From assembly GCF_965251085.1 (NCBI RefSeq), contig NZ_OZ252594.1, forward strand, positions 1,545,859 through 1,609,858: 64,000 nt of DNA, read 5' to 3'. The stretch comes from Methyloprofundus sp. GTDB lineage: Bacteria > Pseudomonadota > Gammaproteobacteria > Methylococcales > Methylomonadaceae. The number at the start of each line of letters is the position of its first letter. Position 1 is the first letter of the stretch. This document shows, one piece after another, positions 49,485 through 63,419 of this stretch. The position numbers and the translations under genes are program-made. Under the pieces are notes generated by a model. The model was not told the origin of the DNA, did no database searches, and saw only the letters and a list, made by a program, of their open reading frames with translations.

Positions 49485-49740
49485 GTGCCTTTGGAATTTA
49501 ATGATGAACGATCCGTGACTCAGTTTTTCCTGGTTCCCTATTTTGACGCCTGTATTCATGTGCTTCCACCGCCGTCCAATCAAATCATTTTTGTCAGTTA
49601 TCCAAATGGACTGAAGCTTGATTCATTGTATGATCCGTTCTGGATTTCAGACATTTTGAAAACCTCTGTTGTCAAGAATGAAACAGCAACAGCCTCCTAC
49701 GCCATGCAGATGCAGTCTTATGAAATTTATACGGAAGAGT
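49485..49740 (+). pseudogene. DUF3299-family 3' remnant
   Basis: PLEFNDERSVTQFFLVPYFDACIHVLPPPSNQIIFV...LYDPFW matches the family's CIHVPPPPPNQ region; 5' half missing. Confidence 0.75.
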
Positions 49741-49744
49741 GTTG

Positions 49745-50752
49745 TCAACTGACGATACAGCCCATTAATTGATCTTCCAATGAGTCATCCAGAGATTCAG
49801 ATATGATTTCAATCCGGCTTTCCATGCACTCGTCCAGCACGAATTCGGTTAAGGCGTCAGCGGTCAGATTGTAGGCAAACACTCCCTTGTCGGTGATAAA
49901 TACCGCTTTCATTCTTTCAGCGTTGATGCCGTTTAACAAATCGAACAGCTTTTTGTGTTCAAACACATGCCTGGGGGAAAAGCGCCAGCCTATGCTTTGA
50001 AAGCCTTCGCCTTGGTTGTGCGCTTTAATATAACCAGAGTCCGGGAAAGGCTGTTCGGATATTAGGGGTTTTTGCTGCGTTGCATGATGGTGATGAGCAT
50101 CTGCAATAGCTGCAACAGCCGCTGTGGCGCCTTCTAATTCTGTAGGTGATATTTGCCCGTTCTGGGTAAAAATCACCCGGCTTTTAGGGGGTGCATATAG
50201 CGCAAAATATTCTTCAAGCATAGGCTTGTCAATATCCCGGTACAAGTCCGTTTTATTACCGATCACAATATCTGCAATGGCAATCTGCTGTTTAAAGGTT
50301 TCATGTGTTGTATAACGTGGGTCGGACAGTTTGCGTGCATCGACCAAAGTCAGAATTTTTTGTAAAGACAATACCTCCCGGTAGTGTTCGGCAGACAGAA
50401 CCTGCAAAACTTCTTCGGGATGACCCAGCCCCGTCGGTTCAATCAGCAAGCGATCCGGTTTTGCCCGGGTCAACAATTCGTTTAAGGCAATTTGCATCGG
50501 TAAACCAGCGGCACAACACATGCAACCGCCCGGTACTTCACGAATAAAGACGCCTTCCTCATTTGCGTGTTGCCCCTCAAACAAACTACCATCCACGCCA
50601 ATCTCGCCAAATTCATTGACCAGCACCGCCCAGCGCTGGTCAGACGGTTTGTTATTAAGTAAATGTAAAATGGCAGTGGTTTTCCCGACACCTAAAAAAC
50701 CGGTGATAATATTGGTGGGAACCGCGTTAATGTTTTTTGATTTAGTCTTCAT
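49745..50752 (-). CDS. COG0523/CobW-family Zn metallochaperone GTPase (YeiR-like)
   Basis: GFLGVGKTT, NEFGE, GCMCC, EPTGLG and NKTD motifs; His cluster AHHHH. Confidence 0.9.
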   Translation of the reverse strand: MKTKSKNINAVPTNIITGFLGVGKTTAILHLLNNKPSDQRWAVLVNEFGEIGVDGSLFEGQHANEEGVFIREVPGGCMCCAAGLPMQIALNELLTRAKPDRLLIEPTGLGHPEEVLQVLSAEHYREVLSLQKILTLVDARKLSDPRYTTHETFKQQIAIADIVIGNKTDLYRDIDKPMLEEYFALYAPPKSRVIFTQNGQISPTELEGATAAVAAIADAHHHHATQQKPLISEQPFPDSGYIKAHNQGEGFQSIGWRFSPRHVFEHKKLFDLLNGINAERMKAVFITDKGVFAYNLTADALTEFVLDECMESRIEIISESLDDSLEDQLMGCIVS

Positions 50753-51227: not shown

Positions 51228-51632
51228 TTAGTGATGATCCGGGCAAGCGCAATCCAGCTGTCGGCAGAGGCGAAAATTCCAAAAATGTCCTGCCGCAACA
51301 AAACTGGCGCCTATTACCGTCAAGATTTTTTCTCCAGATTCCCCGATGATTTCTTCACCTAACATCACAGCCAGAACAAGCAGCGCGAGCCCCGTGCCTC
51401 CCACAATAAGTAAACGGAAGTGTTTATGCCGTTCACATCCCATGCTTAAGGCGTAGATGCTAGTCGGTATGACAGCCAATAGCATCCAGTAATGAAACGC
51501 TTCGTTATCAAGTTGCAAAGCCGCCATGCTTGGCAGTAACGCCAACATGACTGGCACAGCCAGACAATGAACCGCGCATAGCAATGATAAACTGATCGAT
51601 AATTTATCCGTGATTTTCTGTGTTGTTTCCAC
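51228..51632 (-). CDS. MerC-domain membrane protein
   Basis: DKLSISLSLLCAVHCL, four TM segments, C-terminal CACPDHH. Confidence 0.82.
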   Translation of the reverse strand: METTQKITDKLSISLSLLCAVHCLAVPVMLALLPSMAALQLDNEAFHYWMLLAVIPTSIYALSMGCERHKHFRLLIVGGTGLALLVLAVMLGEEIIGESGEKILTVIGASFVAAGHFWNFRLCRQLDCACPDHH

Positions 51633-52114: not shown

Positions 52115-52315
52115 GTAAGCGCTCAATAGTCAGCGTACTTCACGGCAACTCAGATTAATGCCAAACTATCCCCATTGTTAAATACCACGGGGAATTTTAA
52201 ATGGCAGCGTTAGAAAAAATACAGGCAAAGACTTTCTGGCCTATTCACATAGAGCACTGGCAGGCATCAGGCCAATCACAGGTAGCTTATTGTCGACAGC
52301 ATGATTTATGTCCGC
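52115..52315 (+). mobile_element. IS66 left end plus truncated tnpA (orfA)
   Basis: gtaagcgctcaa terminus; [25 protein letters not shown]. Confidence 0.75.
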
Positions 52316-53008
52316 AATTGAACAGTCCAGTGCCCAGTACCGCATCAATATCCACATGCCCCTGTGTAATCGGCAGGATTTGTGCATCATATTCAGCGTT
52401 TTCAATATAGCGGTCAAGCGTTCGATGTCGGCAGAACTAACCAGATCGGCTTTGCTGATCAGGATGACATCTGCAAATTCCACCTGATCGACCAGTAAAT
52501 CCGAGACACTACGCTCATCGTCTTCACCTAGTGATTCACCGCTTTCCTGTAGGGAGTGTGCGGCTTCGTAATCGTTTAAAAAATTAACAGCATCGACAAC
52601 AGTGACCATGGTGTCCAGCGTTGCAATATCGGATAAAGACACGCCATTTTCATCTGTAAAAGTGAAGGTTTCTGCAACCGGAAGTGGCTCTGATATGCCC
52701 GTTGATTCAATAAGCAAATAATCAAAGCGACCGTCTTTTGTCAGTTTGCTGACTTCGAGTAACAGGTCCTCACGTAAAGTACAGCAAATACAGCCATTGC
52801 TCATTTCTACTAATTTTTCTTCACTGCGATTGAGTGATATTTCACTTTGCACAATCGAGGCATCAATATTGATTTCGCTCATGTCATTGACAATGACTGC
52901 GACTTTTTTGTTTTGTCTGTTATTCAGGATATGACTGAGTACAGTGGTTTTTCCAGCACCCAGAAACCCTGAAAGTACGGTAACGGGTAGTCCTTTTGTT
53001 TTTTCCAT
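52316..53008 (-). pseudogene. ZigA-type COG0523 GTPase, truncated and frameshifted
   Basis: [26 protein letters not shown] and ESTGISEP motifs; frameshift at LKTLN; CobW_C domain missing. Confidence 0.85.
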
Positions 53009-53116
53009 AGAAAATCTCGCAACATAAGTGCATGAGCGTGGCAGGCGCGTCTTCGAGCATAAGTCTAAGAGACTGGCGTGCCACACATCATAATTAAATA
53101 GTTATTGATCAGTGTG

Positions 53117-53149: not shown

Positions 53150-53313
53150 TATACTTCGCGCGGCCACGACTGCGGATTTCTAACAGCTGAGTTTTTGCCG
53201 ATAGCTGTGTTTCTGAAACAGTTGCGTAGCCGGCTATGCGCCTGTTTCAGCGCCTTGCTTTTGACAAAAATCAGCGCGTTATAAATTCCGCATCCGTAAC
53301 CGCGCGAAGTATA
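53150..53313. mobile_element. MITE family A copy (no hairpin module)
   Basis: tatacttcgcgcggccacg...cgtaaccgcgcgaagtata. Confidence 0.82.
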
Positions 53314-53355: not shown

Positions 53356-54159
53356 TTATTGTTCGTGAGCATGTTCGTCATCATCCTCAACTTCATGAGC
53401 TTCACTTAATTGAAACAGGAAATTGCCCTGATCATTTAATTGGATTGTGTAGTGTTTACCGAATGCTTCAACTTCCGGAATGGATAAAATACCGGTTATA
53501 TCGTCATATTCTGCACCTTCATGTGCGCCTTCATGTGCGTCTTCCAAGGCTTCAACCGCATGTTCAAATTCTGCTTCAGCTAATCCTTGATTAAAAACAA
53601 TCACCACAGGTTTTGCAGCATAAGAAACCGATAGTTCACTGTTGGCTGCAGATTCAAATAGTTTGAGTTCTATCCGGTAAGCACCTTGGCTGCCACTTAG
53701 AGTATTGCTGGCATCTTGTAGAGAAAAATCGATATGGGTATGTAACCCGCCGTCGGCTTCAAATTCACCAATCACGGCTAAATTGTTGGAAATGTCATGT
53801 CCATCAATACGAATAGTTTGATCCAGCGCATCCACTATATTGATGTGTTCACCATTAGGCATTGAAGTCGTCCATTCGTCACCGTCCCAGAATTGTAAGG
53901 GGGCAACAGCCTGGAATTGCAACCAATTATCTGGATTAAAGGCGCCTTTTTCAATGTTGACATCTATTCCGGGGTCATCCGTTGCAAAAGGGCCGCCGCC
54001 CAAATCGCCTAGGTCAACTTCGAATAATTGACTGTTGAGAAAAATTTCGGCACCTTGACGCCAAGGTTGCAAATCGCCTGCATGTAAATGGTCGTCTGCA
54101 GCAAAAGCAGGAAAGCTGAATGCTACCAACAAAGATGGAATGATCGCTTTTTTTAACAT
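53356..54159 (-). CDS. Secreted His-rich putative metal-binding protein
   Basis: Signal peptide (AFA|ADD), DDHLHAGD, TDDPG, GLHTHIDF; His/acidic tail AHEVEDDDEHAHEQ. Confidence 0.8.
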   Translation of the reverse strand: MLKKAIIPSLLVAFSFPAFAADDHLHAGDLQPWRQGAEIFLNSQLFEVDLGDLGGGPFATDDPGIDVNIEKGAFNPDNWLQFQAVAPLQFWDGDEWTTSMPNGEHINIVDALDQTIRIDGHDISNNLAVIGEFEADGGLHTHIDFSLQDASNTLSGSQGAYRIELKLFESAANSELSVSYAAKPVVIVFNQGLAEAEFEHAVEALEDAHEGAHEGAEYDDITGILSIPEVEAFGKHYTIQLNDQGNFLFQLSEAHEVEDDDEHAHEQ

Positions 54160-54708
54160 AGTGTTTTTTCCTTAATAATTAAGTAAATGTTCTATTTTTT
54201 TAATGGCTTCCAAACGGAAGTTAAAATCGCCAATATTTCGCAAAGTGACACGGTGATATTGGTTGTTTACTGATAACACAGGTATTTCAAGTAAACCTTT
54301 ACTGGCTTTATAATGCGTAGGAAAGGTAGGGCAACTCGCAACAAATAACCCGCCCCCATCTTGCTAGTCTTTTTGTCCGTCTTCAGTGTTGTAGAAATAG
54401 CTACGTAGCTGGCTATGTGCCTATTTCTACGCCCCCGTATCCAGTACGGGGCAGGCTTTGAAGACAAACAAAAATCCTGCGCAATATAGGTGGTTTTTTT
54501 ATTGCGTGTTACCTAGGGTAGTTCGATAGTGTTTTCTCCTTATTAATTAAGTAAATGGTCTATTTTTTTAATGGTTTCCAAACGGAAGTTAAAATCGCCA
54601 ATATTTCGCAAAGTGACACGGTAATATTGCTTGTCTACCGATAACACAGGTATTTCAAGTAAGCCGTTACTGGCTTTATAATACGCTGGAAAGGCATAGG
54701 GTAGTTCG
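54158..54708. repeat. Tandem ~183-bp duplication of the upstream gene's 3' end plus intergenic sequence
   Basis: 54158-54525 (with a MITE inside) and 54526-54708 share atagtgtttt...ggtagttcg at roughly 90% by eye. Confidence 0.8.
54330..54513. mobile_element. MITE family B copy with hairpin module, TAG duplication
   Basis: ggcaactcgcaacaaataacc / ggttttttattgcgtgttacc flanked by TAG. Confidence 0.8.
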
Positions 54709-55910
54709 GCCGGAACAGCCGATTGCAGAGTGAAAATATTATCTTCTGATTGCTGTAATATAGTCCGGTATTGCTGGCTATCGATCCGAACGTCATTTAA
54801 TATCAATTGCTTCTCGGTACTCTCAAATACGGCAACTTTTTGGATGAGTTCAGCTTGTACGGCACTGGGTATTTGACACAACCTTAAACTACATAAGCTT
54901 TTTGCTAAATGGGAATCCTGACGCGTAATCAGGCCATCATTGTCGACATCAAACATCACATTTTCGGCTTGCACAGCATCTTGATTTTGTGCAGCCAATA
55001 AAATTAAAGCCACATCGAGTCGGTCCACATCGCCATCCAAATCAACATCCCCTAGAATGGAAAGAGGAAAAACCGGATTTTCTGGCACAGAGCCGGGTTG
55101 ACCATTACCATTTGTCTGATCAATTAAGCTCAATAGCGCGTTTGAAAATTGATTGTCATCCAAACCGGCATTAAACAGTATTAAAAAGGGTTCACTGGAT
55201 ATAGGGCGGGCATTCGAGAATGCTTGAATTTCAATGAGATAAGCACCGGCTGGACCGCCTAAATCGCCCTGCTGATTTTCCAGAAAAAAACTCAAATGGG
55301 TGTGTAAAATACCTGACTCACTGGTGATGTCGATGACCATTTCTTTACTTCCTGAAACACCTTGAGCGGAAAAAAGGGTGTTACTTTCTGTACTAAAATT
55401 ATCCGCATTAAAACAAAGCAATTGTCCTGCGCAGGCATTGTAATCCGTTGATAGCCCTGCGCTGGCCTCTAAGCCACCATAAACAGCAATACGAACATCC
55501 GGCGGAGCCTGAACCCAAGTAGATATAGCGGGATCCCAATAGCGTAAATGGCCTAAAGCACGATAACTGATTAATTCATTGGGCAATAAAGCACTTTGAA
55601 TGGATTGAAAACCTGGGTTTTTGGTTTTAAATTGTCCACCTGACAAATCCTGAAAATCGGTCAGAAAAATAAATTTACCGGTGGCTGCTTCAACCGGTAA
55701 AACATTGGCTGGTAAAGAAAAATGTTCAAGCAAGCCATCTGTGTCGCAACCCACTACGCCAGGGGTTCGGCAATAGCCAGCAAATAAGGTGTCGTCTTCC
55801 CCCCAGATTTCAACATCCAGATGGATGGCTGCAGCAATAGAGGGAAAAATGAACATCACGGTAAAGCAAAAATACCGGGTGATTTTGATAATTAAAGTGT
55901 TTTTTATCAT
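54543..55910 (-). CDS. Secreted protein: paralogous HTH-motif domain, dockerin/EF-hand-like pair and two C-terminal repeats
   Basis: IHLD, TKNPGF, GILHTHLSF; LGDVDLDGDVDRLD and FDVDNDGLITRQD; start taken at MIKNT. Confidence 0.78.
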   Translation of the reverse strand: MIKNTLIIKITRYFCFTVMFIFPSIAAAIHLDVEIWGEDDTLFAGYCRTPGVVGCDTDGLLEHFSLPANVLPVEAATGKFIFLTDFQDLSGGQFKTKNPGFQSIQSALLPNELISYRALGHLRYWDPAISTWVQAPPDVRIAVYGGLEASAGLSTDYNACAGQLLCFNADNFSTESNTLFSAQGVSGSKEMVIDITSESGILHTHLSFFLENQQGDLGGPAGAYLIEIQAFSNARPISSEPFLILFNAGLDDNQFSNALLSLIDQTNGNGQPGSVPENPVFPLSILGDVDLDGDVDRLDVALILLAAQNQDAVQAENVMFDVDNDGLITRQDSHLAKSLCSLRLCQIPSAVQAELIQKVAVFESTEKQLILNDVRIDSQQYRTILQQSEDNIFTLQSAVPAELPYAFPAYYKASNGLLEIPVLSVDKQYYRVTLRNIGDFNFRLETIKKIDHLLN

Positions 55911-55935
55911 GTTTAATTTAAAATAATCATTCAGG

Positions 55936-58128
55936 TTAGTAACTGGCTCGAAAACCAAAGACAAAGCTTTGTCCCGGTTCCGGCGCATAATTTCTTAGAA
56001 AAGACACGGAATTGCGTATTTCTTCGTTCAATAAATTGTTGGCTTTGGCAAACAACCATAATTCAATTTTTTCAGTGATATCCAGGTGGTAATCAACACT
56101 GGCACTTAACAAGTTATAGCCAGACGTTTCTGATTCAAATGCGCCACTATGGTCTTGTGCTTCGCTGCGTGAATAACGTAAGTTTGCATTCCAGATGTGT
56201 TGACCGAGACCTAGTTCTGCGCCATAACGCAGAGGAGGAATGCGCGGCACATCATCCGTTTTGAAACGCGCGCGGACATAATCGGAAAACAGCGTGAGTG
56301 ATAGATTGGCGTAGGATGATTCATAAAGTGGCATACTCACTTCTGCTTCATAACCAAAAAACTCAGCATTTTGTTGATTATAGGCATATATCGGAACACA
56401 TCCTGCTTCACTGACACAGCGTTGACGAATCACTTCATTATCGATTTCGTAGAAAACCCCGGTGTTTTGTTGATAAATATAATCGTCTATCCGGTTATAA
56501 AATCCGTTTAATTTGAAAGACAGCCCATCGGATTGCCAATCCACGCCTAAATCAATGCGTTTCATGGTTTCGTTTTCTAAAGCGACATTGCCAATATCAA
56601 AGGTTCGGGTTGATAAATGGGGACCAAATGATAACAGTTCCTGAATATCCGGTGAGCGCTGTCCATAGTTGAATGACAAGTTGACATTGGCTTCTGGTAT
56701 GAAATTCCAACGTATGGAAAACGCGCCAGATACAGCGTCATAGCTTAGTTTATCGGGCAATGAAACCGGTGGCAATGCGCTGCCTCGTAAACGCAGCGTT
56801 GTGGCATTGGGATCGATGTATGTTTGTTCATAACGGACACCACCGGTGATGACCCAGTCTTTCCAAGAGTAATTTTGAGTGGTGAAGATTCCCCAGGACT
56901 GTTTTTGCGTTTCCGGCACAAAGGTTTCAATACCCAACGCAGAAAAATCCTGGTCGACCCATTGCACGCCAGTACTGCCCGTAAAACCTTCACCAAAATG
57001 ATGATCTATTTCAAATCGACCTTCACCGGTATCATTACTCACTAATGTAAACAGTGATCCACCTTCGTTTTCTGTATGCTGATAATCAACGTAAGCGTAT
57101 TGAAACCGTATGTTATCAATACCTTCCACAGGATCGTACCACTCGCCTTTAAAGTCATAACGTATGTTTTGCATGGCGATACGGATATTCGGAAACAACG
57201 CTTGTGATCCAAGAATATCCTCAAATCCTTTTATGTCATCCAGTTGCGGCAGAATGAACTCCAGTCCATCCAGATGATTAGGATCTAAGCCGTGACTGCC
57301 CTTAGGAATACCGTATTGGTTTTCGGTGTAACTGACCGACATACCGGCCATCGCTTGCTCACCTAACCAGGAAGCACCGCCAAAGCCGCCGTAACTTTTG
57401 CTATCGCTATTAGGGATAGTGCCTTCAGCATTATTGAAATCAGTTAAATCAAATTGTTGGGTAATAAAGTCGGTGTCAATCGCTAGGCCAGGAATTTGTG
57501 TATCGTTGCGATGCCGATGAAAACCACCCATGGTCAATCCTAACCAGTCTTTTTCCAGATTGACTCTAAAGGCAGAATTCGTACCTTCTCCATTGGTATC
57601 ATAGCGGCTTTCAAGCCAACCACTTAGGAGCTGATCCATGCGTTGTTCAGGAATGCGATAGTCTTTGACTTCAACAATTCCGCCAATGGCATTGCCGCCA
57701 TAACGAATGCTTTCTGATCCAAGTGAAATGCGAATGCTTTCCGCAAAAATCGGTTCTATGGCTACCGCATGATCAGGACTCAAGCTGGAAGCATCATGAC
57801 TACCCAAACCGTTTTGTAATATGCGTATACGTGATCCGGTTAAACCACGAATAACAGGAACGCCCACACCTTGGCCAAATGAAGCGTTGCTGACCCCTAA
57901 CTCCGTTTCCAATAATTTACCTAAGGTATCACTTTGTTTTAATCGTAAAGAATCCCCCTGCAATAAGTTTGTCTGAGAAGATTGCGGGTCGCTGATGGGG
58001 GCGCTAAGGATTTCCATTGCTTCCAAATCTATTGGCTGCGCAAAAGACTTTGAGACAATTCCAAACATGCCTAACAAGACCATATACCGAGTTATATTGA
58101 TTAAGTTAATAAAAAATGAAGCTTTCAT
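55936..58128 (-). CDS. TonB-dependent receptor, ZnuD-like
   Basis: Plug PVIRGL...RIRILQNG, SPDHAVAIEP and IRYGGNAIGG; C-terminal aromatic residue (RASY). Confidence 0.88.
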   Translation of the reverse strand: MKASFFINLINITRYMVLLGMFGIVSKSFAQPIDLEAMEILSAPISDPQSSQTNLLQGDSLRLKQSDTLGKLLETELGVSNASFGQGVGVPVIRGLTGSRIRILQNGLGSHDASSLSPDHAVAIEPIFAESIRISLGSESIRYGGNAIGGIVEVKDYRIPEQRMDQLLSGWLESRYDTNGEGTNSAFRVNLEKDWLGLTMGGFHRHRNDTQIPGLAIDTDFITQQFDLTDFNNAEGTIPNSDSKSYGGFGGASWLGEQAMAGMSVSYTENQYGIPKGSHGLDPNHLDGLEFILPQLDDIKGFEDILGSQALFPNIRIAMQNIRYDFKGEWYDPVEGIDNIRFQYAYVDYQHTENEGGSLFTLVSNDTGEGRFEIDHHFGEGFTGSTGVQWVDQDFSALGIETFVPETQKQSWGIFTTQNYSWKDWVITGGVRYEQTYIDPNATTLRLRGSALPPVSLPDKLSYDAVSGAFSIRWNFIPEANVNLSFNYGQRSPDIQELLSFGPHLSTRTFDIGNVALENETMKRIDLGVDWQSDGLSFKLNGFYNRIDDYIYQQNTGVFYEIDNEVIRQRCVSEAGCVPIYAYNQQNAEFFGYEAEVSMPLYESSYANLSLTLFSDYVRARFKTDDVPRIPPLRYGAELGLGQHIWNANLRYSRSEAQDHSGAFESETSGYNLLSASVDYHLDITEKIELWLFAKANNLLNEEIRNSVSFLRNYAPEPGQSFVFGFRASY

Positions 58129-58242: not shown

Positions 58243-58734
58243 TTACGAAACACAATTGACACAAATCCCCTGAATTTCAATGGTTTTTATATGAGAGATA
58301 AAACTCGATTGTTGTAGTTCAGTGGTAACCGTCTTACTCATATTGCTTCCAGTCTGCTCCTCAACTTCATGACATTGGGTACAAATTAAAAGCACACATT
58401 CATAGTTGCAGTGTCCTTGGTTACAGGCAATGAATGCATTGAGACTTTCTACTTTATGAATAAAACCTTCCTTCAATAGAAAGTCCAATGCACGATAAAC
58501 GGTCGCAGGTTTTGCATTTTTAAAATCGGATTTAATGTCTTCCAACAAATCATAGGCTTTAACTGCATGATGACTTTGACACATTAATTGAAGAATTTGT
58601 TTTCGAATGGCTGTCAATCGAACTCCCTGTTTTTTACAATGATTTTCAGCGGATTGTAAAGCCGATTTGCACGCACAATCATGATCAACTACATGATCGG
58701 AAGGTGGGTTATCTGTCTTATTCATTGGAATCAT
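58243..58734 (-). CDS. zur: Fur-family zinc uptake regulator
   Basis: RLTAIRKQIL, KAYDLL, KPATVYRALDFL, HKVESLNAFIAC and two CxxC motifs. Confidence 0.85.
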   Translation of the reverse strand: MIPMNKTDNPPSDHVVDHDCACKSALQSAENHCKKQGVRLTAIRKQILQLMCQSHHAVKAYDLLEDIKSDFKNAKPATVYRALDFLLKEGFIHKVESLNAFIACNQGHCNYECVLLICTQCHEVEEQTGSNMSKTVTTELQQSSFISHIKTIEIQGICVNCVS

Positions 58735-58752
58735 ATTGTTAAATTAATGTTT

Positions 58753-58772
58753 TGTTATAACATAACATTATA
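58753..58772 (-). promoter_or_regulatory. Zur-box-like palindrome overlapping a TATAAT -10
   Basis: tgttataacataaca (consensus core TGTTATAnTATAACA); minus-strand TATAAT at 58767-58772. Confidence 0.7.
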
Positions 58773-58773
58773 A

Positions 58774-60467
58774 CCTAAATCCTGCAAGCCCATATTTTGA
58801 CTCTCATTAACCTGTCTAGCTAAGTGGTTATTAGGTTTTTACTGCCGCTTTGCCAGCCCTCTTTGTCCAACCGATCAAAATATCCAGATTTAAATCATAA
58901 ATAGAGGAAATTTTTTGTATCGTATGGATATCCCCCGAGCCCAAGGCAATAAACACCCTGCCAACGTGCCATGACCTTTTAATCAAAGTGACTTAACTTC
59001 GGTTAATGTTAAGCGAGTAACCCCACCTTAACCCAATCATCCCATTCCTGTGGATAGAGCGGACCTGCAGGTGTTCTGACTCTCAGCTGATTATTGCCTG
59101 TGAGTAATTTTCCAGCCACCCGAATCAGATAAGTACGAAGTGTATCCGGCTCCCATTGGCACAACGTTTTGTTGCCACTCAATTGAGCCATCCAGCGCAC
59201 GGTATTGTAGGCAAGAACGGCGCAATGAAATAATGCGGCATTAGCCAGAAATTGATTCGTTCTGATTTTACCTAAACCCATTTGTGATTTTGCTTCTTCA
59301 ATCCATGTTTCGCACGTCGCTCGTTCACCATACTTCTTATGTGTTTGCCAAGGCGATAGAGGTTCAGTTGTTACATAACAAAAATAGTCATATTCTGCCG
59401 TATCCCAAAGCTCGGACTGAGGTCCTGTCACTTGTTTAGGTTGCTTTATCCTGACCGCGACAAACTGACGAGAGCGAGACCAGCCACCACAACGATATTG
59501 AAACTCGCTCTGCTCCCAACCGGGTCGGCCTTGTATGGCTGTCCAGGCCTGTTTGGCCAGCAATGCGTTCAAATTCTTAAGTTTAACCTTTATTAGATAC
59601 CCATGCCCTCTGGTATCGAGAAATTCAAGCAAATCACCGACAAAATAACCACTGTCACCGCGAAAAATAATGCGCATCCGATTGGGCAAGTGTGCAAGTA
59701 ACTGTTTGGTAAATTCTACAACACCATTGCTTGTAAAGGCATTGCCTGTCCGGAACCAGGCTTGTAAAATTTCTTTTGTTTCCGCTAGAAAAGCGAGTTG
59801 TGGATGGTATGAACGGGCACCTTTCTTTTTGGGGTTGAAGCCTTTGGCACTTCCTTCTTGTCGACCACAAACGGTGTCCACAGTTGAATCGACATCGACC
59901 CACTGGACGGATTGTATGCCAGTTTTCGATTTTCCGGAACGAAGCAATCGCCGCCAGTGTTGACCACGCAAAGTATGCGTGAGCGTTTCAAACTGGCTTA
60001 TCTGCCTATCACTTACTTCTTTAAAGATCCGTAAAATTGTGGTTTCAACAGGAATCTTTATCCAGCCAGCTACTTTGCGCAGTACGCTATCTGCCCATAC
60101 GGTCGTCACCTTTGCCATTGATGTTGCTCCCCCCATCATGCCAACCAACGTCAATAGAACCACATCAGATAAGTGATGGTCTGCATTTTCACCCCGCCGA
60201 TGTGGAACGCTTTGTTTTACGGTTTTTTCAAAACCTATCCTGTCTAAATATTTCACGACGGGAATCAGTCCCGCCTGGCTTGTCAATCCATGTGCTGTAG
60301 ATGTCATTTTTACCGTTCGGGTACGGTTTCTTACGTGAGATGAGGATTTTGATACTTTAGAGGGCTTCATTAAAACAATGAGATAGTGAAATCAGGAAAA
60401 TGATATTATATCATTGTTTAATAAGGAGTTTTGTGGATTATTATGTATAATGCTTGCAGGATTTAGG
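58774..60467 (-). mobile_element. IS1380-family element, copy 4
   Basis: Same TIRs, 1694 bp, TSD tataa at 58769-58773 and 60468-60472. Confidence 0.95.
59009..60370 (-). CDS. IS1380-family transposase
   Basis: 453 aa; GPLYPQ variant. Confidence 0.92.
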   Translation of the reverse strand: MKPSKVSKSSSHVRNRTRTVKMTSTAHGLTSQAGLIPVVKYLDRIGFEKTVKQSVPHRRGENADHHLSDVVLLTLVGMMGGATSMAKVTTVWADSVLRKVAGWIKIPVETTILRIFKEVSDRQISQFETLTHTLRGQHWRRLLRSGKSKTGIQSVQWVDVDSTVDTVCGRQEGSAKGFNPKKKGARSYHPQLAFLAETKEILQAWFRTGNAFTSNGVVEFTKQLLAHLPNRMRIIFRGDSGYFVGDLLEFLDTRGHGYLIKVKLKNLNALLAKQAWTAIQGRPGWEQSEFQYRCGGWSRSRQFVAVRIKQPKQVTGPQSELWDTAEYDYFCYVTTEPLSPWQTHKKYGERATCETWIEEAKSQMGLGKIRTNQFLANAALFHCAVLAYNTVRWMAQLSGNKTLCQWEPDTLRTYLIRVAGKLLTGNNQLRVRTPAGPLYPQEWDDWVKVGLLA

Positions 60468-62706: not shown

Positions 62707-63162
62707 TTATTTTAACAAATCTTTTATTAAAATAACTTCCATATCATCAGTTGAGCGAATACCTTTATCATTGGTAATAAAAAACTGACAACCGGATTTT
62801 ATGGCTGTTGCATAATGTAGAGCATCTGCAAACTTCATTTTATATTTGGCACGAATTTGAGAAGATAGATCAAATGTATCTGCATTATGTGATGCTATTG
62901 AAAGAAAATTATCTGCAAAAAAGAATGCTTTAAAAGTAGATATGAGTGAAAGGTTATTGAGCTGATAAGGTTTAACAAGAGCTTCTGCAACGGTTAAGTC
63001 ACCGGTAAAAGCAAAAAATTTTCCTTGTTCAACGGCTTCTAAAATGTCGGCAGAAATAGGAAAAAATTCTGTATTTTGATCAAGAAAGTAGATAAACAAG
63101 TTTGTATCAATATACACAGATTGCCCTGCAATTTTATCAATGTGTTGCTTTATTTTTCCCAT
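62707..63162 (-). CDS. PIN-domain (VapC-like) toxin
   Basis: YIDTNLFIY, AEALV, DALHYATA and FITNDK motifs. Confidence 0.88.
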   Translation of the reverse strand: MGKIKQHIDKIAGQSVYIDTNLFIYFLDQNTEFFPISADILEAVEQGKFFAFTGDLTVAEALVKPYQLNNLSLISTFKAFFFADNFLSIASHNADTFDLSSQIRAKYKMKFADALHYATAIKSGCQFFITNDKGIRSTDDMEVILIKDLLK

Positions 63163-63419
63163 GACTCTCTTTCATTAGTAATAAAATGATCAATATCTTC
63201 AGCTGTTTTCCCCCACATTCCTTTTGCTATACCAGCATAAGAAAGAATAGATTTTTTATTTTCTAAGCGTTTAACTGGCGTTAAGGTTACGATTCCATTA
63301 ATAAGATTAACATTCACTTTATCTTCAGTGTGTATTTTCCAGGCATGTAAGATTTCAGAGGGTATTGTAATTTGTCCTTTGGGGCGAATTTTTACCATAG
63401 GCATATGAGTTGTCTCCAT
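63150..63419 (-). CDS. AbrB/MazE-type antitoxin
   Basis: KGQITIP motif; overlaps the PIN gene start. Confidence 0.85.
   Translation of the reverse strand: METTHMPMVKIRPKGQITIPSEILHAWKIHTEDKVNVNLINGIVTLTPVKRLENKKSILSYAGIAKGMWGKTAEDIDHFITNERESWEK

Follow-up and report, generated by a model that had tools for sequence, protein, structure and literature searches.

We analysed a stretch of 64,000 nucleotides of Methyloprofundus sp. (contig NZ_OZ252594.1, positions 1,545,859 to 1,609,858; hereafter the window) which carries, on its minus strand, a Zur-box-like palindrome followed by zur, the gene of a ZnuD-like TonB-dependent outer-membrane receptor and the genes of a long and a short exported protein (Table 1). 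An earlier note on this DNA had described zur and a ZnuD-like receptor directly ahead of two exported proteins, and this arrangement was confirmed by the open reading frames (ORFs) and by Pfam and NCBIfam searches. The two exported proteins belong to an unnamed family that is found beside ZnuD-like receptors, which suggests that they are probably new helpers catching scarce zinc outside the cell.

Table 1. Coordinates of the features of the zinc locus in the window.
Feature	Position	Strand	Remarks
Zur-box-like palindrome, 26 bp, TAATGTTATGTTATAACAAAACATTA	core 58747-58768		just upstream of the zur start
zur	58243-58734	-	Fur-family zinc uptake regulator, first gene of the run; Pfam FUR 7e-10
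ZnuD-like TonB-dependent outer-membrane receptor, 730 amino acids	55936-58128	-	Plug and barrel
Long exported protein (class B), 455 amino acids	54543-55910	-	probable start MIKN at 55910
Core domain of the long protein	55125-55829	-	residues ~28-262; alignment and profile matches
Dockerin-like double calcium-loop module of the long protein	54873-55061	-	residues ~284-346, C340/C345
Two tandem four-strand beta modules, ~45 amino acids, C-terminus of the long protein	54558-54845	-	BLASTP E 3e-4, hidden Markov model matches
Insert of ~200 nucleotides separating the long and short genes, with many internal inverted repeats	54327-54525
Short exported protein (class A), 267 amino acids	53356-54159	-
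Acidic/His C-terminal tail HEVEDDDEHAHEQ of the short protein	53359-53394	-

The receptor and the two exported proteins

The product of zur had Zur as its best NCBIfam match, with a score (116.8 bits) below the equivalog cut-off of 167. A search for Zur boxes in the window gave no second match besides the palindrome at zur, and near-identical palindromes are present upstream of the receptor gene at three related loci (L001, L003 and L005). A weak promoter-like match (58758-58730) overlaps the palindrome with a score at chance level; the promoter and terminator scan of the window as a whole returned chance-level matches only and was uninformative on operon structure. We infer that Zur, acting at the predicted box, controls zur, the receptor gene and the genes of both exported proteins.

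The receptor matched the Pfam domains Plug (1e-11) and TonB_dep_Rec_b-barrel (4e-38). Its best NCBIfam match was ZnuD (NF038289) with 352 bits, which does not reach the cut-off of 950, and by this score it is a ZnuD-like relative and not the curated Neisseria/Acinetobacter equivalog. It aligned to ZnuD of N. meningitidis (PDB 4rdr) at E 8e-64. The buried high-affinity zinc site of that protein consists of Asp99, His100, Glu340 and His499 (PMC4557270), with which D119, H120, E353 and H504 of the window's receptor align, and all four ligands are kept in 31 of the 31 receptors that are linked to a family member. Plug and barrel, the four ligands of the buried site and a predicted Zur-box context are shared with Neisseria ZnuD, whereas loop 3 differs. 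A long extracellular loop 3 with two His/Asp/Glu clusters, as in Neisseria, was not found in the window's receptor; the equivalent stretch of 52 amino acids (21-54 amino acids with 0-4 His in relatives) is far shorter than the 'fishing net' of Neisseria, and of cluster 1 it retains just a remnant (SHGLDPNHLD). Because the zinc ligands are kept and loop 3 is short, the substrate is most likely ionic zinc. The 'fishing' for zinc that loop 3 performs in Neisseria ZnuD may be outsourced by short-loop receptors to the exported proteins. To our knowledge, no comparable accessory proteins are encoded beside the ZnuD gene of Neisseria.

The short and the long exported protein are paralogues, which align in BLASTP at E 4e-15 with 27% identity over about 200 amino acids. 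The alignment contains the motifs F..D..DL.GG.F.T..PG, WD...W, G.LHTH..F.L, GAY.IE and P..I.FN.GL...F, in agreement with the shared, unnamed domain of about 200 amino acids that had been noticed before. A second BLASTP match (E 3e-4) corresponds to a common C-terminal module of about 45 amino acids. The core domain of either protein had no match in Pfam or NCBIfam and no match to any PDB chain in searches with sequence profiles. Comparison of the AlphaFold2 (AF2) models of both proteins with PDB also gave no significant match to the core; none of the fold matches obtained, to pilins, adhesins and lectin domains, reached significance (E > 1e-3; TM, normalised by query length, < 0.3). Both models are all-beta sandwiches with one helix and small four-strand C-terminal modules. 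The predicted local distance difference test (pLDDT) score was 65.6 for the short protein and 70.3 overall for the long protein, with values of about 90 in the C-terminal beta modules of the latter.

The short protein is built of a signal peptide, the core with H26, D29, H140 and H142, one beta module and the acidic/His tail. The N-terminal HLH and the His/acidic tail that the earlier note had ascribed to it are present: the mature protein starts with ADDHLHAGD, and its acidic/His segments are EDAHEGAHEGAE and EDDDEHAHEQ. The long protein, whose maximal ORF spans 54543-55988 on the minus strand, is composed of a signal peptide, the core beta domain, the dockerin-like pair and two C-terminal beta modules. 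Invariant in its core are H30-L-D32, H203-T-H205 and the Cys pairs C47/C55 and C160/C166. The predicted dockerin-like calcium-binding pair was likewise recovered (GDVDLDGDVD...FDVDNDGLITRQD), with a score of 21.7 bits against Dockerin_1 (PF00404), which falls a little short of the gathering score of 22.9. Most homologues of the long protein carry a precomputed PF00404 annotation, and the family profile matches PDB dockerins at E 3e-4.

An unnamed two-class family beside ZnuD-like receptors

A profile search of 1.84 billion representative proteins assigned 1154 clusters (50% identity) to the family at E <= 1e-3, and 273 at E <= 1e-10. The family is not restricted to the lineage of the window and is much wider than the earlier note had supposed. 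Close homologues of each of the two window proteins were found in Methylococcales and Nitrosomonas-like bacteria only. The family is rare and patchy, being present in 14 of 201 Methylococcales genomes and in none of six other genomes of the window's genus; a phylum-wide sample, in which two of 401 genomes had a member, added little context. Most members are about 240 amino acids long and carry a PEP-CTERM tail. When 31 diverse members were compared with Pfam, only dockerin and PEP-CTERM were detected and the core remained unmatched, and a literature search returned no description of the family.

Across the family an Asp near the mature N-terminus, a Pro-Gly pair, both His of an HxH motif, a Tyr and an Asn are invariant. 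The HTH motif that had been reported is present in both window proteins, but the conserved form is HxH (HTH, HEH, HAH, HSH or HQH, followed by L, I, V, M or F) combined with an N-terminal His/Asp, and not a fixed HTH. In nearly all members a His precedes the N-terminal Asp by one or two residues (H-x(1-2)-D), and this His/Asp pair is separated from HxH by about 115-175 residues. It is somewhat more likely than not that the exported proteins bind zinc through HxH and the N-terminal His/Asp site. Acidic/His-rich ends occur in several members, and His-rich tails were seen in three homologues (P0013, P0014 and P0009). A class A member of 483 amino acids from a Methylococcales genome (G010; L025 5949-7400) ends in a perfect (HD)9, which strongly hints at metal binding.

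In a maximum-likelihood tree built from 77 core domains, clade A, which holds the window's short protein, separated from clade B, which holds the long one, with 100/100 support. Nearly every adequately sampled locus contains at least one member of each class. The split and the presence of both classes at nearly every such locus indicate that the duplication is old and that the roles of class A and class B are probably not redundant.

Related loci were examined with the window's receptor, Zur and COG0523 proteins as neighbourhood probes. In 33 of 37 loci the family member has a ZnuD-like receptor gene no more than 9 kb away; these comprise all 10 loci from genomes and metagenomes and 23 of the 27 from species-representative genomes, and the linked receptors score 330-990 bits against the window's receptor. 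Three of the four loci without receptor are on truncated contigs. Among the carriers are Nitrosomonas, Nitrosospira, Nitrosovibrio, Methylococcaceae, Roseateles, other Burkholderiales, Cellvibrionales, Pseudomonadales and one planctomycete; the locus search was seeded with the window's protein, which contributes part of the taxon bias. The triplet of receptor, long and short protein is conserved in Methylococcales and Nitrosomonas-like bacteria, and the genes that adjoin it encode ZIP, COG0523, FUR, ZrgA, DUF1826, MerC and hisI products. Zur-like regulators and ZigA-type COG0523 proteins are recurrent neighbours, and four of five Fur-family neighbours tested scored best as Zur, the fifth being PerR/Fur-like. 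The zinc and TonB context that had been proposed for the family is, on these neighbourhoods and the kept ZnuD ligands, robust. Homologues lying mostly outside Zur/TonB contexts had been named as an outcome that would contradict the proposal; the receptor linkage given above is the reverse of this pattern.

Proposed zinc capture outside the cell and competing explanations

Taking the locus and the family together, we give a probability of about 0.55 to the reading that the window encodes a zinc-starvation uptake module, in which the exported proteins bind zinc outside the cell and hand it over to the receptor. When zinc becomes scarce, repression by Zur would be lifted and zur, the receptor gene and the class B and class A genes would be expressed. 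Both exported proteins would leave the cytoplasm through Sec and would be held at or beyond the cell surface by interchangeable C-terminal modules, which are the dockerin pair and the beta modules here and PEP-CTERM in most relatives. Zn2+ would be bound at the invariant HxH strand and the N-terminal His/Asp, helped by the acidic/His-rich tails. The local supply of zinc would be raised at the buried Asp-His-Glu-His site of the receptor, and the ion would be imported with TonB energy. That the exported proteins are zinc-starvation accessories functionally tied to the ZnuD-like receptor is very probable. The step in which zinc is bound outside the cell and passed to the receptor is more tentative, and we would place it somewhat below even odds.

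Several observations weigh against this reading. Class B proteins of Nitrosospira/Nitrosovibrio have S-Y-D where others have the N-terminal H-x-D. The AF2 models are mediocre, and the N-terminal His region of the short protein is poorly modelled. In the window's genome expression may be impaired by the upstream insertion sequence, the insert between the two exported-protein genes and the broken zigA gene described below. One Planctomycetota locus is truly without a receptor nearby. A PEP-CTERM-type locus (L035 1-9800) adjoins FeoAB, ExbBD-TonB, HemP, Bfd, bacterioferritin (Bfr) and a PerR/Fur-like regulator; this iron-type neighbourhood does not fit the zinc pattern, and a ZepA homologue is found there too. 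Receptors with about 40% identity occur in 11 Methylococcales genomes that lack any family member. This receptor class can therefore work alone, and strict phyletic coupling of receptor and family was rejected on the same ground; a one-way dependence of the family on the receptor is as expected for an accessory.

The place where the proteins act bears on a first alternative, in which they would be periplasmic zinc buffers or chaperones, like Zcp/DUF4198, ZinT and ZrgA, that take Zn2+ from the receptor and pass it to, or buffer it for, inner-membrane importers. The two window proteins have plain Sec signal peptides and neither PEP-CTERM nor lipobox, as would suit a periplasmic location. In the wider family the C-termini vary (PEP-CTERM, PKD with dockerin, dockerin with beta modules, and others), and PEP-CTERM was found in 17 of the 31 diverse members. 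Among six family-bearing genomes sampled, a full exosortase is encoded in four of the five others, whereas the window's genome has one exosortase (PF09721) fragment of 175 amino acids only (34.5 bits, G000:C1:3126622-3127044). One genome (G144) has no exosortase, and its family members have no PEP-CTERM tail. Dockerin and PKD modules are typically found in extracellular proteins. This pattern agrees with a core domain active outside the inner membrane, whose tail is set by the sorting machinery of the host, and it speaks against the periplasmic reading, as does the extracellular location of ZepA, an exoprotein with the same tail type. The 45-amino-acid beta module (Y..xGxLxIPxVxxxGxxYxxxLxxxGxFxFxL) was also detected in at least eight other ORFs of the window's genome, including G000:C1:3292602-3293348 (L027 2603-3349), where it recurs in predicted exported proteins, and in an 812-amino-acid protein beside Zur in L048. 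It has the look of a mobile module for sorting or anchoring.

The closest periplasmic counterpart is Zcp (NGO1049, DUF4198), a Zur-induced periplasmic homodimer with a beta-sandwich fold and a His triad formed by an N-terminal HxH and a distal His (PNAS 2025, PMC12663993). Its likeness to the window's family, namely Zur induction, a beta-sandwich, three His from N-terminal and central strands and a frequent position near TonB-dependent receptors, favours a periplasmic role, and the absence of DUF4198 from the window's genome leaves that niche open. The triad is a mirror image, however, since HxH is N-terminal in Zcp and the order is reversed in the window's family. The Pfam model of DUF4198 (PF10670) had no match in the two window proteins or the 31 relatives at E <= 1, the family compared with four DUF4198 proteins in hhalign gave probabilities <= 1.4%, and Zcp was not among the 50 fold matches listed for either AF2 model. 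Homology to DUF4198/Zcp was rejected on the Pfam and hhalign results, and Zcp is, as far as these comparisons go, analogous in logic and not homologous. Other accessory zinc binders of Zur regulons with His-rich segments (ZinT, ZrgA (DUF2796) and AztD) are unrelated families, which are periplasmic and work with ABC importers, and none of them gave a Pfam match in the window's proteins. We regard periplasmic buffering as unlikely.

Extracellular zinc capture by a protein is no longer without precedent. The earlier note knew of no protein-based zincophore system in this lineage; ZepA (All3515) of Anabaena sp. PCC 7120 is already such a protein, a Zur-regulated PEP-CTERM exoprotein of about 27 kDa, with about 1.5 zinc bound per monomer, that supports zinc uptake (PLoS Biol 2024, PMC10957091). 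It is located outside the cell and has been proposed to deliver zinc to an outer-membrane receptor, with no known receptor link (PMC10957091). Like the window's proteins, ZepA is exported with a signal peptide, is Zur-linked, lies beside COG0523 and TonB-dependent transporter genes, and has a beta-sandwich domain, a conserved His triad and a flexible His/acidic end; its PEP-CTERM tail is found in relatives of the window's proteins, which themselves end in beta modules or an acidic tail. In contrast, ZepA has its motif (H-x2-9-H-[FY]-H) within a single short segment; the window's family combines HxH with a distant N-terminal His/Asp and forms two paralogue classes tightly linked to a receptor gene. 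Homology to ZepA was rejected, as hhalign with the published ZepA sequence gave a probability of 0.2% and phmmer with ZepA does not recover family proteins. True ZepA homologues (phmmer E 1e-25 to 1e-67) co-occur with the family in 10 loci (L024, L034, L035, L050, L053, L055, L056, L060, L061 and L063), and in Nitrosospira sp. NpAV the homologue is flanked by a class A gene and a COG0523 gene. Plausibly, unnamed gene neighbours in the ZepA paper (PMC10957091) are members of the window's family.

This co-occurrence bears on a second alternative, in which the two proteins would be surface adaptors that do not bind free zinc but tether or present ZepA, a zinc-loaded macromolecule, a mineral surface or exopolysaccharide, or serve as a lid or co-receptor. 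An adaptor would be in keeping with two conserved, non-redundant classes per locus, a dockerin module that suggests protein-protein docking, the presence of ZepA, itself without known receptor link, in 10 family loci and fold matches to pilins, adhesins and lectin domains only. Those fold matches are non-significant, however, and direct metal binding is the better explanation of the invariant HxH and the His/Asp-rich tails. Moreover, no ZepA homologue was found in the window's genome by phmmer, and this genome and all Nitrosomonas-type loci keep both family classes without ZepA. An adaptor role is thus improbable to about the same degree as a periplasmic one.

A carrier that feeds a receptor has a known counterpart in the HasA-HasR hemophores, in which the gene of a secreted binder also adjoins that of a TonB-dependent receptor; the window's family shares this gene arrangement in 33 of 37 loci, and its PEP-CTERM tails, dockerin and PKD modules and the exosortase correlation are indirect evidence for an extracellular carrier. 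Receptors of the same class are also found without the accessory protein, and ZnuD and HasR clamp their ligands at an equivalent place (PMC4557270). The systems differ in cargo (haem versus the proposed bare metal ion) and in number of carriers (one versus two paralogous proteins), and they have no sequence or fold similarity. The specific hemophore-like mechanism that had been proposed is plausible for the window's proteins.

The identity of the metal was weighed as well, since the module could serve copper, iron, cobalt or nickel. Methane and ammonia oxidisers need much copper, and many carriers are Nitrosomonas, Nitrosospira, Nitrosovibrio and Methylococcales; the neighbours in L035 include Fur/PerR-like, Bfr, Bfd and FeoAB proteins. 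His triads also bind other metals, as in crystals of Zcp, in which Cu, Ni and Co were bound (PMC12663993). Against this stand the exact ZnuD zinc site of the receptor and the zinc-starvation neighbours (Zur-like, ZigA-type COG0523, ZIP, ZrgA, DUF3299, DUF1826 and the hisI paralogue). ZepA homologues are zinc-specific in the published assay (PMC10957091). Carriers also include Roseateles, Cellvibrionales, Pseudomonadales and Planctomycetota, and the bias towards methane and ammonia oxidisers stems in part from the seeding of the search with the window's protein. Service to another metal is highly unlikely; a copper reading of the MopE/CorA-like kind, suggested by the methanotroph and nitrifier hosts, was rejected because of the receptor ligands and the zinc-type neighbours.

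How zinc passes the outer membrane of Gram-negative bacteria in the environment is little understood, and ZepA is the only proven zinc exoprotein. The family described here, unnamed and with more than 1000 clusters at 50% identity, is a near-constant neighbour of receptors with the ZnuD zinc site, has two classes and often occurs with ZepA. For nitrifiers, methanotrophs and other environmental bacteria, it provides concrete, testable candidates for the part of zinc uptake that takes place outside the cell. A bolder and doubtful extension is that the family represents a third, unrelated kind of zinc capture, a two-component (A and B) extracellular His-site carrier that would dock on ZnuD-type receptors, feed them ionic zinc and, in ZepA-bearing bacteria, form the missing link between ZepA and the outer-membrane transporter. 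If this extension is true, protein 'zincophores' would be a modular and widespread environmental strategy, with sorting tails swapped according to the presence of exosortase. If zinc capture by the exported proteins is the wrong reading, the family would still be an unexplained obligate neighbour of a zinc receptor.

Mobile elements and remnants around the locus

Downstream of the short gene lie genes and remnants of a zinc island: a broken zigA, a MerC-like gene, a hisI paralogue, a COG0523 GTPase gene and a DUF3299 fragment. The zigA-type COG0523 gene (52241-53086) matches positions 1-212 of the 390 in the NCBIfam model, after which a frameshift occurs and the remainder is absent; being truncated and frameshifted, it is a pseudogene within the island. 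The DUF3299 fragment is a 95-amino-acid ORF (49485-49772) with the C-terminal 79 residues of the domain and is what remains of a Vibrio zrg-like cluster for zinc uptake. Immediately upstream of the zur promoter and the Zur box is a gene for an IS1380-like DDE transposase (PF13701, 158 bits; 59009-60370), and this element may alter expression of the whole operon. The insert between the long and short genes is flanked by direct repeats of 169 nucleotides (54158-54326 and 54526-54694, 92% identical), which duplicate the 3' end and stop region of the long gene; in Methyloprofundus sedimenti (L005) the two genes are 24 nucleotides apart. An element resembling a miniature inverted-repeat transposable element (53150-53313), with terminal inverted repeats of 30 nucleotides that are 83% complementary, lies just downstream of the short gene.

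The transposase gene upstream of zur, the broken zigA with the DUF3299 remnant, the insert with its duplications and the absence of the family from the other genomes of the genus would be in line with a further alternative, namely that the window's module is what is left of a zinc island gained by horizontal transfer, in decay and poorly expressed, irrespective of the family's role in other genomes. Yet zur, the receptor gene and the two family genes are unbroken, full-length ORFs in which every invariant residue is kept, and the Zur box and start region are intact, which makes such local decay quite improbable.

In Nitrosospira sp. NpAV (L061) an intact DUF3299 gene and an FtsX/MacB permease gene lie beside the family, and a lone amoC (PF04896, 418 bits; L061 9828-10742) is located within the zinc-starvation island, with the class A gene on one side and the ZepA homologue on the other. 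The MerC-like membrane protein of the window (51228-51632) recurs in three zinc islands (L003, L046 and L064). Its gene directly adjoins the family gene in the Planctomycetota locus without receptor, and because of this position the MerC-like protein is suggested to be an inner-membrane metal importer. At 62707-63419, beside IS66 remnants, the gene for a PIN-domain protein and that for a small MazE/AbrB-like protein share 13 nucleotides and probably form a toxin-antitoxin pair.

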